Virus genome (UHGV): UHGV-2151295 | Strand: one strand, 5' to 3' | Origin: a virus | Length of the DNA: 14,378 nt | In this document: in pieces, positions 1 to 7,146 of the stretch | Position numbering within the stretch: position 1 is the stretch's first letter | Layout of the letters: each line of letters begins with the position of its first letter | Position numbers and translations under genes: made by a program | Notes under the pieces: generated by a model | Seen by the model: the letters and a program-made list of their open reading frames with translations, nothing else | Told to the model about the DNA's origin: nothing | Database searches by the model: none

Positions 1-105
1 CTTGCCACCACCCCGCAGAACGGGCATTCCCTGCTCCTGCCAGTTCTGAATGGTACGGATACTCGCACCGAAAATGTCAGCCAGCTGCTTTTTGTTGACT
101 TCCAT
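1..105 (-). CDS. nu1: Terminase small subunit Nu1, N-terminal 35 codons (gene continues beyond left edge of window)
   Basis: Reverse-complement translation from ATG at 105..103 gives MEVNKKQLADIFGASIRTIQNWQEQGMPVLRGGGK, which I recognise as the lambda Nu1 N-terminus (winged-helix cosB-binding domain). Truncated by the window edge. Confidence 0.9.
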   Translation of the reverse strand, partial: MEVNKKQLADIFGASIRTIQNWQEQGMPVLRGGGK

Positions 106-119
106 TGTTCATTCCACGG

Positions 120-300
120 ACAAAAACAGAGAAAGGAAACGACAGAGGCCAAAAAGCTCGTTTTCAGCACCTGTCGTTTCCTTTCTTTTCATAGGGTGTT
201 TTAAATAAAAACATTAGGTTACGGCGAAGAAGAACGGAAACGCCTTAAACCGGAAAATTTTCATAAATAGCGAAAACCCGCGCGCCTTCCGCCCCGTGAG
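120..300. other. cos region (cosB plus cosN-equivalent at about 283..294)
   Basis: Sequence between the Nu1 start and position 282 matches, in reverse complement, the lambda left-end leader (CGCGGGTTTTCGCTATTTATGAAAATTTTCCGGTTTAAGGCG...) with a few substitutions. The 12 nt where lambda has its cohesive end read GGGCGGAAGGCG here on the minus strand. Confidence 0.7.
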
Positions 301-442
301 AGCTCAGGTCATCAGAAGGACCCACATTAAAGGCAGAATATTCACTCTGATATTACGCATTGTTTTGCTTTTGTAGATTCGCAATTTACGGTAAAAATCC
401 TTTTGCTATTTCTTCGTACCATAAATGCACAGGAGTATCTTA

Positions 443-763
443 ATGTCCATAAAGGTATTCAGAAGTGACCTTCAGACTGAGAGTGAATCAGACTATCGTA
501 ATTGGCTTGGCGATAATCCAGACGGATATGTTGTCAATGCATTGAAGCGAACCAGAGGTAAAGGTAATAAATCTGACGAACGCTTTACCAGAATCCATAG
601 AGCATCTTGCAAAACGATTAATCCCCTGAAACGCAAGATCGATAAAACAGGATTCACAACTGGAGATTATCAAAAAATATGCTCAACCAACTTCCTCAAT
701 GTTGAAAATGAAGCAAAGAAAATGACAGGTCTGACGAGCATCATCAAATGTCGATGCATCTAA
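443..763 (+). CDS. Hypothetical protein, 106 aa, Lys/Arg-rich, at the bor locus
   Basis: ORF track 425..763; AGGAG at 431..435 sits 7 nt upstream of ATG 443, so 443 is the likelier start. AT-rich. Same orientation as lambda bor but the sequence is not Bor (no lipoprotein signal). No family recognised. Confidence 0.45.
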   Translation: MSIKVFRSDLQTESESDYRNWLGDNPDGYVVNALKRTRGKGNKSDERFTRIHRASCKTINPLKRKIDKTGFTTGDYQKICSTNFLNVENEAKKMTGLTSIIKCRCI

Positions 764-980
764 AGCGTCCTGTAATTAACATGTTCAAAACACTCTCCGG
801 GTGACCGCTAATGCTGTTGTCAGCCAAAAACTCTACGTTTCGATTATGTCAATTTTGCACCGCCCGATGCCGATAAATGCGAAAATCCGGCGACTATGTA
901 GCGTAATCAAATCAACGAGATACCACTTTCATGAAATAATTATCATCTGTCAGTTCAATATCAATGTTGAGAGAGAATAA

Positions 981-1133
981 ATGAGAGGAATGCCAAGAGG
1001 AAGTCGAGGACAGAGGGCTGTCCAGTCAACAGCAAGAAGAGCAAGACGATCAAATGCCAGCCATTCTGACCAATTAGGATGCCTGGCACTAATCATCTTT
1101 GGCCTGATATTTATCTATTTCATGGCTAATTAG
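981..1133 (+). CDS. Putative small membrane protein, 50 aa (Arg-rich N-terminus, C-terminal hydrophobic helix)
   Basis: Translated by hand: MRGMPRGSRGQRAVQSTARRARRSNASHSDQLGCLALIIFGLIFIYFMAN, stop TAG at 1131..1133. Purine-rich GAGAGAGA upstream of the ATG. Below the ORF-track size cutoff. Uses many rare Arg codons (AGA/AGG/CGA), so it may not be expressed. Confidence 0.3.
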   Translation: MRGMPRGSRGQRAVQSTARRARRSNASHSDQLGCLALIIFGLIFIYFMAN

Positions 1134-1143
1134 CAAAGATTGC

Positions 1144-1422
1144 TCATCTTACACACTGCGTTCGAATGTATTGCTGCAAGCCTCGGATCATTTTATCACT
1201 GGTTTCAATCCGCTTTCTAAGGGTGAAATAATCCCGTTGAGCGGTGTCAGTAAGTCTGGGGCTGGCGCCATCATCCACGCCGGAGGCGGCGGTGATTTTA
1301 TGCATGTCGGGACAGACTGCATTGAAGCGCAGCCGCTTACGCCCAGCAGAAACATCAGCACGTAGACTTTCGATAACCTGCTCATTGCTGCCCCCACAAA
1401 CAGACTTCACGCTCAATCTCAC
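1144..1422 (-). CDS. rz: Spanin inner-membrane subunit Rz-like, apparently N-terminally short (92 aa, GTG start)
   Basis: C-terminal 70 aa ([15 protein letters not shown]...[18 protein letters not shown]...) align to lambda Rz. The frame has an in-frame TGA at 1431..1429, so the ORF cannot extend to encode the N-terminal TM anchor of a 153-aa Rz. Confidence 0.65.
1188..1385 (-). CDS. rz1: Spanin outer-membrane lipoprotein Rz1 (embedded in Rz, +1 frame)
   Basis: [19 protein letters not shown] lipobox followed by the proline-rich [13 protein letters not shown]...TPLNGIISP motif characteristic of lambda Rz1. ATG at 1385..1383 overlaps the endolysin stop. Confidence 0.7.
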
Positions 1423-1696
1423 GGCGAGTCATCAGCCCTTTCCATTGCTTACCGCCAGCGTATGTCCAGCGACGTAGCTGGTCACATGCGCCTTTGATAT
1501 CGCCCTGGTTTATTTTGCGAAGAAGCGTCGATGTTCTGAAATTGCCAGCACCCACGTTGTAGACGAACGAGTAAAGAGCGCCGCGCGTTGTTTCCGGTAT
1601 ATCGACTTTGATGTACGGGTTAATTTGTCTGGCGACCGTGGCAAGGTCTTTATTCAGGAGGGCTTTGCATTCTGCTTCGGTATACGTTTTAGATGG
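1382..1696 (-). pseudogene. Endolysin remnant: C-terminal about 104 codons of a GH24 (T4-lysozyme-like, R21/RrrD-type) lysozyme, with no start codon and no catalytic N-terminus
   Basis: Minus-strand translation [104 protein letters not shown]. It is in the same frame as ren and begins 2 codons after the ren TGA (1699..1697). The N-terminal about 60 aa that carry the catalytic Glu/Asp/Thr triad in this family are absent. Confidence 0.7.
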
Positions 1697-1987
1697 TCAT
1701 CTTTTAACTCCATATACTGCCAATACCCGTTTCATCGCGGCACTCTGGCGACACTCCTTAAAAATCAGGTTCGTGCTCATCTTTCCTTCCCGTTCTTCCC
1801 TGGTAGCAAACCGGTAATACACCGTTCGCCAGACCTTACCTTCGATAACCAGAAGACCTGCCCGTGCCATTTTAGCCGCGGCCTGATTTATGCTGGTTAC
1901 TGTTGCGCCTGTTAGCGCGGCAACGTCCGGCGCACAGAAGCTATTATGCGTCCCCAGGTAATGAATAATTGCCTCTTTGCCCGTCAT
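1697..1987 (-). CDS. ren: Ren protein (Rex-exclusion resistance), 96 aa
   Basis: Translation MTGKEAIIHYLGTHNSFCAPDVAALTGATVTSINQAAAKMARAG... recognised as lambda Ren; lies directly downstream of P as in lambda. Confidence 0.85.
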   Translation of the reverse strand: MTGKEAIIHYLGTHNSFCAPDVAALTGATVTSINQAAAKMARAGLLVIEGKVWRTVYYRFATREEREGKMSTNLIFKECRQSAAMKRVLAVYGVKR

Positions 1988-2685
1988 ACACTTGCTCCTT
2001 TCAGTCCGAACTTAGCTTTGATTTCTGCGATCTTCGCCAGAGCCTGTGCACGATTTAGAGGTCTACCGCCCATGACAGGAAGTTGTTTTACTGGTTCAGG
2101 GATCGCCTCACCACGGTTAATTCTCGCAGTCATATGGACAAGCTCATCTGCGGCCTTACGGCGTAATTCCGCATCAGTAAGCGCATTGGCCCGCATGTTC
2201 TGATACAGGTTGGTAATCAGCCAGTAGTGCGCGTTTGATTTCCACGGATAAGACTCCGCATCCGGATACAGGCCTCGCTTCCGGCAATACTCGTAAACCA
2301 TATCAACCAGCTCGCTGACGTTTGGCAGTCCGGCGGTAACGGATGCTTCTTCCCGGCACCATGCAACAAACTGCCCGGGTGATGGCAGAAATGGTCGATT
2401 CTGCCGACGGGCTACGCGCATTCCTGCGTTAACCTGTTCCATCGTGGTGATCCCGTTTTCCCGGAAAGCCAGCACCCACTGGCGGCGGATTTCGTTCAGT
2501 TCGTTCTGGTCCCGGTTAGCTAGGCTCGCCGGGAAAGTTGCCAGTAACTGGCTGAACACACCATTGATGATCTGCGCTACCTGTTGTACCTGCGGCTTTT
2601 CGTCGTACTGTTCCGGCATGTTGTTGGCGATCCGACGCATCTGCTCACGGTCAAAGTTAACCATCTGTGCGGCGATGTTTTTCAT
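1984..2685 (-). CDS. P: Replication protein P (DnaB helicase loader), 233 aa
   Basis: Translation MKNIAAQMVNFDREQMRRIANNMPEQYDEKPQVQQVAQIINGVF... recognised as near-identical to lambda P; 4-nt overlap with O stop. Confidence 0.95.
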   Translation of the reverse strand: MKNIAAQMVNFDREQMRRIANNMPEQYDEKPQVQQVAQIINGVFSQLLATFPASLANRDQNELNEIRRQWVLAFRENGITTMEQVNAGMRVARRQNRPFLPSPGQFVAWCREEASVTAGLPNVSELVDMVYEYCRKRGLYPDAESYPWKSNAHYWLITNLYQNMRANALTDAELRRKAADELVHMTARINRGEAIPEPVKQLPVMGGRPLNRAQALAKIAEIKAKFGLKGASV

Positions 2686-6591: not shown

Positions 6592-7146
6592 TTACTTAGA
6601 TATTGGCCTTGGCTTTATCTCAATATTATATGGATCATAGCTGGCAACTAATTCAGTCCAGTAAATATCCTCAATAGGGAATAATATATGCTTCCCGTTC
6701 CATCGGGAAAAAGTTTTGTTCAACACACCAAGCTCAATCAACTCACTAATGTATGGGAATTGTTTTGATGTAACCACATACTTCCTGCCTTCATTAAGGG
6801 CTGCGCACAAAACCATAGATTGCTCTTCTGTAAGGTTTTGAATTACTGATCGCACTTTATCGTTTTGCATCTTAATGCGTTTTCTTAGCTTAAATCGCTT
6901 ATATCTGGCGCTGGCAATAGCTGATAATCGATGCACATTAATTGCTAGCGAAAATGCAAGAGCAAAGACGAAAACATGCCACACATGAGGAATACCGATT
7001 CTCTCATTAACATATTCAGGCCAGTTATCTGGGCTTAAAAGCAGAAGTCCAACCCAGATAACGATCATATACATGGTTCTCTCCAGAGGTTCATTACTGA
7101 ACACTCGTCCGAGAATAACGAGTGGATCCATTTCTATACTCATCAA
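6592..7146 (-). CDS. sieB: Superinfection exclusion protein SieB, 184 aa (membrane protein)
   Basis: Translation MMSIEMDPLVILGRVFSNEPLERTMYMIVIWVGLLLLSPDNWPEYVNERIG... recognised as lambda SieB; convergent with N as in lambda. Confidence 0.9.
   Translation of the reverse strand: MMSIEMDPLVILGRVFSNEPLERTMYMIVIWVGLLLLSPDNWPEYVNERIGIPHVWHVFVFALAFSLAINVHRLSAIASARYKRFKLRKRIKMQNDKVRSVIQNLTEEQSMVLCAALNEGRKYVVTSKQFPYISELIELGVLNKTFSRWNGKHILFPIEDIYWTELVASYDPYNIEIKPRPISK

Follow-up and report, generated by a model that had tools for sequence, protein, structure and literature searches.

The interval between cos and Rz in the window, that is, the whole 14,378-nt stretch of DNA analysed here, carries a genuine gene under purifying selection (ORF-A, 443..763, + strand), whose product is a stand-alone member of an undescribed His/Cys domain family. 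The evidence supports the interval as cargo, a 'moron' module that accompanies the right end of lambdoid prophages. Its best explanation, to which we give about an even chance, is that ORF-A would be a prophage-made nucleic-acid recognition protein acting in conflict.

We delimited the interval by its flanking phage genes. On the left, positions 1..105 hold, on the − strand, the N-terminal 35 codons of a Nu1/NohD-type small terminase gene (tblastn with NohD of locus L001 placed residues 1-35 at 105..1 with 100% identity). This − strand fragment (105..1) is the start of the late/packaging operon. The cosN region and the left edge of the shared module follow at 278..300, where the − strand reads ...ACGGGGCGGAAGGCGCGCGGGTTTTCGC; from its likeness to lambda cos we take this segment to contain cosN, at about 278-289, and in copies adjoining a different (DUF1441-type) small terminase the homology starts at 278. 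On the right, tblastn recognised Rz at 1147..1374 (− strand) through residues 72-147 only, and the shared module reaches 1375 by its homology limits. The 'Rz' that bounds the interval is a C-terminal fragment only. From cosN to the Rz stop at 1144, the interval spans about 860 bp, and the prophage around it is defective. The Rz/lysozyme-ren junction of the window occurs in none of the complete RefSeq E. coli genomes. A preliminary description had portrayed this interval as AT-rich, devoid of bor and occupied by two ORFs in the bor orientation. Indeed, GC content is 40.2% in 300..1143 versus 47.8% in the rest of the window, a composition that differs from that of the neighbouring phage genes, and two ORFs with ATG starts (443..763 and 981..1133, hereafter ORF-A and ORF-B, of 106 and 50 codons) lie on the + strand, opposite to the − strand Nu1 and Rz fragments. 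Bor is likewise absent, since a tblastn search with the lambda Bor sequence gave no match in the window at E<0.5. Megablast/blastn searches of 50,697 phage records with either 300..1143 or 764..1143 also yielded no match. That either ORF is Bor or a fragment of a known lambda right-end ORF was rejected on the lack of both sequence similarity and nucleotide matches in phage records. A scan of positions 1..2000 against Rfam at E<=1 returned only sub-threshold and biologically implausible matches (weak, spurious eukaryotic ones).

ORF-A consists of an ATG-initiated frame of 106 codons plus stop and encodes a basic soluble protein (pI 9.66, GRAVY −0.81, no N-terminal hydrophobic segment) recorded as WP_000025003.1, 'hypothetical protein'. 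Both its Lys/Arg-rich character (21 K+R in 106 residues) and its good Shine-Dalgarno (SD) sequence had been recognised correctly: AGGAG at 431..435 (+ strand) lies at 7-nt spacing from the ATG and forms an anti-SD duplex with a dG of −6.9 kcal/mol, which places it in the best 8% among all ATGs in the window. A longer version starting at the in-frame ATG at 425 was rejected, because this codon lacks an SD (dG +0.6) and every homologue begins at the position equivalent to 443. These homologues, 24 in number, nearly all 106 aa long and 58-69% identical to ORF-A, come from other Enterobacteriaceae (Klebsiella, Citrobacter, Leclercia, Raoultella, Cedecea and Pseudescherichia), and at the DNA level homology to the loci of other genera is restricted to 452..761. 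In the comparison with homologues, pS is saturated (0.72-0.82) while pN is just 0.22-0.26, hence a dN/dS of about 0.1. Within E. coli we scored three synonymous and two non-synonymous changes, one of the latter being R47C at an otherwise invariant residue. The existence of homologues and the purifying selection that they reveal thus set ORF-A beyond a chance reading frame. We found no mention of WP_000025003 in the literature, and a search on lambdoid morons gave general background only.

The distribution of the module fits cargo. It is carried by 54 of 5426 complete E. coli genomes, and ORF-A occurs in a single one of the 50,697 phage records. The slot is constant: ORF-A always lies between the Rz/lysis genes and the small terminase gene, in the opposite orientation to them, and homologues in other genera keep both position and strand. 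The adjoining terminases are of at least four types (Nu1, DUF1441, Terminase_2 and HNH+Terminase_4), and the module has been swapped as a block among prophages with different terminases. Together with the distinct composition and the patchy occurrence, this exchange corroborates the earlier proposal of a cargo locus in the bor slot. ORF-A is also intact in decayed prophages, that of the window included. The accompanying claim of an own promoter, for which 340..440 had been singled out, is supported for several ORF-A homologues but not for the window copy. Loci L003, L009 and L015 have a strong sigma-70 promoter (TTGCCA-16-TATATT, 10/12) that ends 26-29 nt upstream of the ATG; at the matching position, L006 carries TG-n-TATAAT. 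Upstream of the window ORF-A this promoter is not recognisably conserved, and 340..440 contains no consensus sigma-70 promoter on the + strand (best, 7/12 matches). No + strand terminator was found for the window ORF-A at consensus thresholds; in relatives a hairpin followed by a T-run, terminator-like in − strand reading, lies just 3' of the ORF-A homologue. The lysis-terminase junction of L006-L008 also houses a Tad2-like anti-defence gene (PF11195). Opposite strand and own promoter are the usual layout of lysogen-expressed morons; ORF-A would be made from its own promoter, apart from the late operon and, we infer, probably in the lysogen, at which the survival of an intact ORF-A in defective prophages hints indirectly.

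To place ORF-A in a family, we compared it with models and profiles. No Pfam, PHROG, NCBIfam or PADLOC model matched it (Pfam, NCBIfam and PADLOC also at E<=1), and ORF-A, ORF-B and a third frame at 801..980 yielded no significant family, only two PHROGs (E 0.2-0.3), both without an assigned function. A profile search with ORF-A retrieved 247 cluster representatives (50% identity) at E<=1e-3, with E-values to fused, multidomain members down to 2e-9 (whole library). Residues Y18, W21, G28, H52, C56, K78, C80, C103 and C105 are conserved in stand-alone and fused members alike; across 50-60 distant members the W, G, H and K do not vary, the Y and Cys residues are at least 90% conserved, and all family motifs, i.e., Y..WL..NP.GFV.N, (L/I)HRAxCxxI, FT..Y.K.C and CxxC or CxC, are found in ORF-A. 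Given this conservation of His and Cys residues, H52, C56, C80, C103 and C105 probably hold a zinc ion. In other bacteria the ORF-A-like domain stands N-terminal to a McrA-type HNH nuclease: a scan of 42 multidomain members gave 15 matches to Pfam HNH and eight to HNH_2, along with NOV_C, Pkinase, YgjP-like and HTH domains. The HNH parts of these fusions match positions 174-258 of 277, that is, the C-terminal part, of the PADLOC Type IV model mREase_IV. For the N-terminal regions of these fusions we obtained no Pfam or PADLOC match. Giant Ser/Thr kinases and a Swt1-like HEPN protein are among the genomic neighbours of family members. The fused relatives belong to distant phyla (Planctomycetes, Chloroflexi, Actinomycetes), no enterobacterial enzyme with an ORF-A-like domain appeared among those found, and the wider family is mostly non-phage. 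This His/Cys family and its McrA-type HNH fusions had been missed in the preliminary description. Two stand-alone relatives bear the JGI label '5-methylcytosine-specific restriction protein A'. At three phage loci the ORF-A homologue is arranged head-to-head with a 287-aa protein with a C-terminal HNH domain; a hidden ORF-A-like domain in this neighbour was considered and rejected (hhalign probability 0.1%). The AlphaFold2 model of ORF-A is confident (pLDDT 86.5, pTM 0.80). A sequence profile search of the PDB returned nothing at E<=10, and Foldseek with the model found no significant fold match in the PDB (best E 0.4), its best E in BFVD being 0.77. The remote homology search advocated earlier uncovered a wide domain family for ORF-A but neither a solved fold for it nor a homologue of ORF-B.

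McrA-type enzymes pick their DNA target with an N-terminal module. Since the ORF-A domain takes the N-terminal place in the McrA-type fusions, a recognition protein is the most likely identity of ORF-A. It would be a non-catalytic nucleic-acid (DNA) recognition protein, binding for instance incoming or modified DNA, and its arena would be phage-phage or phage-host conflict; both the DNA binding and the conflict role we infer. A role in virion production would be unlikely. The partner domains of the family (kinase, peptidase, HTH) fit a protein- or ligand-sensing role equally well. ORF-B stands outside the conserved unit as a lineage-restricted candidate.

We assessed ORF-B (981..1133, + strand) separately, as a candidate 50-aa tail-anchored membrane peptide. 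Its shape is as previously claimed, with an Arg-rich N-terminus (8 Arg in the first 23 residues) and a hydrophobic C-terminal stretch, LALIIFGLIFIYFMA, whose 15-residue Kyte-Doolittle mean reaches 2.8. The SD sequence is moderate (dG −5.5), and a candidate extended −10 element (TGaAATAAT, 932..940, + strand), which a lenient consensus scan detected and a stricter one missed, lies 41 nt upstream and might drive it. A promoter-like site on the − strand (964->936) points away from ORF-B. We give ORF-B an evenly balanced chance of being a real, translated gene. In its favour, it is intact in 16 of 16 copies representing 10 haplotypes, with neither indel nor stop, next to a spacer that does have an indel. 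Its substitution pattern is non-random: of six variable sites, five fall on third positions and are synonymous, and the remaining one is the conservative change F40V; the probability of at least 5/6 synonymous sites is 0.004-0.009, or roughly 0.02-0.05 allowing for the six frames inspected, and no other frame over ORF-B fits the substitution pattern. The antisense ORFs 950..1096 and 961..1089 were rejected as the true frame, as two variable sites lie outside it and one haplotype has a nonsense change in this wobble-aligned antisense frame. The spacer itself (764..980, + strand) displays no coding sign, as its seven variable sites follow no period-3 pattern and a 1-bp indel at 833 occurs in two haplotypes; it has no homology outside the E. 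coli module. An ORF at 801..980 shares the frame of ORF-B and is separated from it by one TAA. That both are remnants of a decayed longer gene was rejected on the absence of a coding signal and the presence of the indel.

Just as plausible, however, is that ORF-B is a chance ORF, that 764..1143 is a non-coding AT-rich spacer or decayed cargo and that the locus has a single gene. When 764..1143 is shuffled, 24% of the resulting sequences contain an ATG ORF of 50 aa or longer, so length alone is not significant. ORF-B is confined to the E. coli module, where its copies are at least 98% identical; no homologue emerged among 5.8 billion proteins or in JGI metagenomes, and IMG/VR contains near-identical copies only. 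PGAP never annotated ORF-B in any of the 54 genomes, and nothing similar lies 3' of the ORF-A homologues in nine loci from other genera. The in-frame neighbour at 801..980, one stop away and bearing the indel, looks like decayed sequence, and a strict-consensus promoter for ORF-B is absent. Against this reading stand the almost entirely synonymous variation, the intactness of the frame beside an indel-containing spacer, and the combination of ATG, moderate SD and possible extended −10.

Our preferred account of ORF-A as a recognition protein has to be weighed against other functions. An unlikely one is that ORF-A serves as an anti-defence decoy or competitor, that is, a phage-made copy of the sensing or targeting domain of host McrA-type HNH nucleases and other effectors, which would compete for their DNA sites or ligand and thereby shield the phage on infection or induction, not benefit the lysogen. 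This would agree with the many HNH nucleases and other fused effectors in which the domain forms the N-terminal module, with the absence of a catalytic domain from ORF-A and with the Tad2-like PF11195 gene at the lysis-terminase junction of L006-L008. On the other hand, ORF-A is oriented opposite to the late operon, with a constitutive-looking promoter in relatives; the fused relatives belong to distant phyla, and an enterobacterial enzyme with the domain was not among them. Moreover, ORF-A is kept intact in defective prophages unable to make phage, which suggests that the host and not the phage gains from it.

We hold it very unlikely that ORF-A and ORF-B form a two-gene abortive-infection or toxin-antitoxin-like pair, in which a membrane-acting ORF-B would be under the control of a nucleic-acid-binding ORF-A. 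The two frames lie on the same strand, 217 nt apart with no terminator between them, they always occur together in the E. coli module, and ORF-B resembles small membrane toxins in size and in its single hydrophobic helix. However, the idea of a pair, implicit in the preliminary description, does not withstand comparison across genera, as the ORF-A homologues in every other genus stand without an ORF-B-like partner and the two are nowhere else conserved together. In addition, we detected neither an antisense RNA family nor an Rfam match, the helix of ORF-B is C-terminal after a long Arg-rich tail, unlike the arrangement known from classic type I toxins, and translation of ORF-B is itself uncertain. 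The labels 'small membrane toxin' and 'exclusion function' attached to the locus earlier are guesses.

Slimmer still is the prospect that ORF-A is a phage-internal regulator or accessory factor, acting in packaging at cos or in transcription into the packaging operon, rather than a conflict gene: its small size, basic character and invariable location directly upstream of the small terminase gene across genera would suit such a role, but ORF-A adjoins four mechanistically different packaging systems, both cos and pac, and lies on the opposite strand. Most lambdoid phages lack it (it occurs in 1 of 50,697 phage records and in 1% of E. coli genomes), it survives where the packaging genes are pseudogenes, and its wider family is mostly non-phage.

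Lambdoid prophages are known for the lysogenic-conversion, exclusion and anti-defence genes that morons bring into their lysis-terminase junction. The ORF-A family is absent from Pfam, NCBIfam, PHROGs and PADLOC, yet widespread, with 247 representatives, and its domain recurs at the N-terminus of McrA-type HNH nucleases and of other proteins from conflict systems. The 106-aa stand-alone E. coli version offers an easy entry point to the target of the domain. If real, ORF-B would exemplify small membrane proteins that are very young, restricted to one lineage and overlooked by standard annotation; should neither ORF have a measurable effect, the locus is another hypothetical prophage gene. In a more speculative and, taken as a whole, rather improbable version, ORF-A would be the first member, and one amenable to experiment, of a new zinc-dependent recognition domain with which bacteria of many kinds direct HNH nucleases, kinases and further effectors to foreign nucleic acid; lambdoid prophages of Enterobacteriaceae would employ a nuclease-free copy as a new type of superinfection-exclusion factor or as an anti-restriction decoy, and the E. 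coli lineage might have added ORF-B as a de novo tail-anchored membrane partner.

Among known systems, prophage single-helix peptides and type I toxins invite comparison with ORF-B, which shares with them a length of about 50 residues, one hydrophobic helix and a location in AT-rich prophage cargo. It differs in that this helix closes the peptide, preceded by an Arg-rich segment of 30 residues, and, with respect to type I toxins, in that we found no antisense RNA, Rfam family or homologues for the candidate. ORF-A resembles the stand-alone sensor or binding domains that phages and prophages carry as exclusion or anti-defence factors, such as the Tad2-like protein of L006-L008, in being small single-domain cargo in a variable phage junction and homologous to a module inside larger defence proteins, but neither its sequence nor its fold relates it to Tad2 or any other PADLOC-modelled protein. 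The bor/Rz-cos cargo region of lambda is the classic lambdoid moron. Like bor, ORF-A sits between the lysis genes and cos/Nu1, runs against the direction of the late operon, is AT-richer than its surroundings, occurs in only some related phages and, in relatives, has its own promoter. Unlike Bor, which is a lipoprotein, it is soluble, basic and Cys/His-containing; it has no similarity to Bor, matches no Pfam family and lacks an N-terminal hydrophobic segment, all of which set it apart from the Bor lipoprotein family. As for McrA-family Type IV enzymes, ORF-A cannot be a nuclease, being without an HNH domain: no model matches it and 106 aa are too short to accommodate one. The likeness resides in its distant relatives, where the same domain forms an N-terminal accessory part followed by a C-terminal HNH, and the ORF-A-like domain, homologous to the N-terminal domain of many HNH fusions, may recognise modified DNA.

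Both plus-strand ORFs of the preliminary description were found exactly where it had placed them, ORF-A at 443..763 (106 codons) and ORF-B at 981..1133 (50 codons), and the ~860-bp interval from cos to the Rz stop that holds them is indeed AT-rich (40.2% GC vs. 47.8% in the rest of the window). The ORF-A start codon follows, at a distance of 7 nt, a Shine-Dalgarno sequence as good as proposed (AGGAG; anti-SD dG −6.9, a value in the top 8% for ATGs of the window), and the predicted protein is Lys/Arg-rich, as described (21 K+R in 106 aa, pI 9.66), with four Cys and one His. Neither ORF is Bor; lambda Bor has no counterpart in the window. Apart from two single-residue variants, all E. coli copies of ORF-A inspected carry the RefSeq label WP_000025003.1, "hypothetical protein", and no paper mentions this accession. 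A search of 5.8 billion proteins retrieved 24 relatives from Klebsiella, Citrobacter, Leclercia, Raoultella, Cedecea, and Pseudescherichia, nearly all of 106 aa and 58–69% identical, and the family alignment contains 35 invariant columns, including H52, C56, C80, C103, and C105. Comparison of ORF-A with seven homologues yielded saturated pS values (0.72–0.82) and low pN (0.22–0.26), which implies a dN/dS of ~0.1, while nucleotide homology to the loci of other genera is limited to 452..761, i.e., the coding region. Collectively, these data indicate that ORF-A is a real, conserved, and selected gene, and very probably a real cargo gene of this family.

The late and packaging genes of this lambdoid prophage occupy the minus strand. 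To the left of the interval lie the 35 N-terminal codons of a small terminase gene of the Nu1/NohD type (105..1) and the cos region (around 270–300, the minus strand reading ...ACGGGGCGGAAGGCGCGCGGGTTTTCGCTATTTATG...). The cosN cohesive-end sequence at ~278–289 is GGGCGGAAGGCG, to be compared with GGGCGGCGACCT in lambda; positions 283–288 are different again in module copies adjoining a DUF1441-type small terminase. An imperfect inverted repeat between cos and Nu1 (124–191, GAAAGGAAACGACAG...CTGTCGTTTCCTTTC), which caused spurious microRNA matches in Rfam, presumably represents the terminase-binding cosB repeats. On the other side, the lysis cassette (1144–1700, minus strand) is a wreck, of which only residues 72–147 of Rz (1374..1147) and 64–165 of an RrrD-type lysozyme (1385–1690) survive. 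The lysozyme remnant directly adjoins the ren stop (1697), which indicates that holin, Q, and the nin region were deleted from the window; this junction is absent from all complete RefSeq E. coli genomes.

All loci recovered have the ORF-A homologue on the opposite strand, with the lysis cassette (holin, lysozyme, Rz/Phage_lysis) to one side and the small terminase gene to the other, and the packaging module beside it varies by locus (Nu1/NohD, DUF1441, Terminase_2, or HNH plus Terminase_4). The 844-bp interval is present at ≥98% identity in 54 of 5426 complete E. coli genomes, where the homology block extends from cosN (278) into Rz (1375), whatever terminase is found at the left. Among 50,697 deposited phage genomes, a single one, of a Klebsiella phage, encodes a homologue. 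Directly upstream of the homologue, three related loci (L003, 5947–5974; L009, 5944–5971; L015, equivalent position) carry a strong sigma-70-type promoter, TTGCCA-16-TATATT (10/12 matches), and a fourth, L006, has TG-n-TATAAT at the equivalent position; in all four the −10 element ends 26–29 nt before the ATG and is followed by GGAG. This promoter has been kept across genera although synonymous sites within the gene are saturated. L003 and L009 further display, 50–60 nt past the stop, a GC-rich hairpin (AACCGCCTCCGGGCGGTT) with a T-run, reading on the minus strand. Neither element is retained in the E. coli copy, where each has been lost or replaced: no plus-strand promoter or terminator reached the tool's thresholds in the window, and the best promoter match in a lenient scan was only 7/12. 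A promoter-like TTGATA-17-AATTAT on the minus strand (936–964) points towards the ORF-A 3′ end and overlaps, in the AT-rich spacer, a possible plus-strand extended −10 upstream of ORF-B (TGaAATAAT, 932..940).

ORF-A remains intact in strain NT1F10, though its terminase, portal, and lysozyme genes are pseudogenes, in isolate F138, where the small terminase is truncated, and in the window, beside the Rz and lysozyme remnants. Such retention through prophage decay fits a gene that works for the host and not for virion production. Taken as a whole, the unit has the look of a moron, as the preliminary description proposed. Selection on ORF-A, its fixed cargo slot, and a dedicated promoter in relatives are all shown. 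In loci L006–L008, the space between Rz and the homologue holds a Tad2-like (PF11195) gene (6769–7044, minus strand), so the lysis-terminase junction also collects anti-defence cargo. These three loci are metagenome-derived, and their ORF-A homologue is the protein that NCBI names for Raoultella planticola.

No model in Pfam, NCBIfam, or PADLOC matched ORF-A, its sole PHROG match was PHROG 3622 (unknown function, E 0.32), and the family profile retrieved none of the PDB sequences; none of the curated libraries searched describes the cargo family. A set of 1.84 billion cluster representatives, searched exhaustively with an HMM, yielded 247 proteins at E ≤ 1e-3, most of them stand-alone and of about 95–110 aa; about one in three of the 150 best matches reaches at least 150 aa, with the domain usually N-terminal. 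The family signature comprises, in order, Y..WL..NP.GFV.N, (L/I)HRAxCxxI, FT..Y.K.C, and CxxC, the latter being CxC in the enterobacterial phage subfamily. In stand-alone and fused members alike, W, G, H, and K never vary, and conservation of Y and Cys is at least 90%. A Pfam scan of 42 multidomain members revealed HNH in 15, HNH_2 in 8, NOV_C in 2, and, in single members, a protein kinase, a YgjP-like metallopeptidase, HTH_3/HTH_31, or DUF6998. The HNH part is C-terminal to the ORF-A-like domain, which itself matches nothing, and aligns with positions 174–258 of the 277-position PADLOC model "Type IV methyl-directed restriction enzyme", a stretch that corresponds to a McrA-type HNH. Database names are all "hypothetical", except for two stand-alone members labeled "5-methylcytosine-specific restriction protein A" by JGI.

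Neighbours of stand-alone members include a Swt1-like HEPN protein and an integrase, and in two Micromonospora genomes the gene lies immediately downstream of a giant Ser/Thr kinase of 1000–1300 aa (L024, 49–3123; L027, 8–3883). In P0130, a distant relative, the ORF-A-like domain is fused C-terminally to a kinase. Three phage loci, from Leclercia and two metagenomes, encode, head-to-head with their ORF-A homologue, a protein of 287 aa whose C-terminal domain is a McrA-like HNH, together with a MazG-like gene (minus strand; L036, 1731–2913; L037, 1724–2909; L039, 1723–2905), the pair being upstream of the small terminase gene where the contig includes the latter (L039). An ORF-A-like N-terminus in the 287-aa protein was ruled out.

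ORF-A is a stand-alone copy of a domain placed where McrA-type nucleases and other effectors carry a targeting or sensing module. We propose that its five conserved His/Cys residues would hold zinc, that the basic protein would bind nucleic acid and be produced in the lysogen, and that it may take part in conflicts between phages or between phage and host, by the exclusion or marking of incoming DNA or by shielding DNA. The chances of this whole statement, from selected cargo gene to conflict role, are roughly even; that ORF-A is a DNA-recognition protein is somewhat less likely than not, and a new zinc-dependent nucleic-acid reader domain, deployed by prophages without its nuclease, is improbable. 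The main functional rival, an anti-defence decoy, is favoured by the kinship of ORF-A with effector sensor domains and by the Tad2-like gene in the same hot spot, but the strand, the type of promoter, and the persistence of the gene in dead prophages argue against it, and it is doubtful. ORF-A is unlikely to have a packaging or regulatory role, given its presence next to four unrelated packaging systems and its absence from most lambdoid phages.

As for ORF-B, its Arg-rich N-terminus (eight Arg among residues 1–23) and C-terminal hydrophobic stretch (LALIIFGLIFIYFMAN) were confirmed, and its Shine-Dalgarno is moderate (dG −5.5). It is confined to the E. coli module, in the same 54 genomes as the interval, where PGAP annotates nothing, and six IMG/VR contigs contain it at 98% protein identity; no homologues were found among 5.8 billion proteins or in JGI metagenomes. 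Shuffling of 764..1143 yields an ATG ORF of 50 codons or more in 24% of cases. ORF-B is intact throughout 16 copies (10 haplotypes), and of its six variable sites, five are synonymous changes at third positions and the sixth is F40V in the hydrophobic helix (P for at least five of six synonymous, 0.004–0.009, according to the transition bias assumed). Other frames hold three synonymous changes at most, and the wobble-aligned antisense frame was discarded as it acquires a nonsense change. This pattern looks coding-like, but with six sites and six inspected frames the signal is no more than suggestive. The spacer (764..980) has seven variable sites without period-3 pattern and a 1-bp indel at 833 (two haplotypes), which argues against coding by a 59-codon GTG ORF (801–980, plus strand) in the ORF-B frame, separated from it by a single TAA (978–980). 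Translation of ORF-B as a tail-anchored peptide is about a coin toss. None of nine loci from other genera has an ORF-B-like peptide downstream of the ORF-A homologue; apart from adjacency, no functional tie joins the two.

Lambdoid morons are a well-known kind of feature, and by its architecture the locus is one that occupies the bor slot. By similarity it does not belong to the Bor family. ORF-B is akin to small prophage membrane peptides in size and hydrophobicity only. ORF-A is no Type IV restriction enzyme, as it lacks an HNH domain; it shares homology with the non-catalytic module that many McrA-type HNH proteins carry at their N-terminus.
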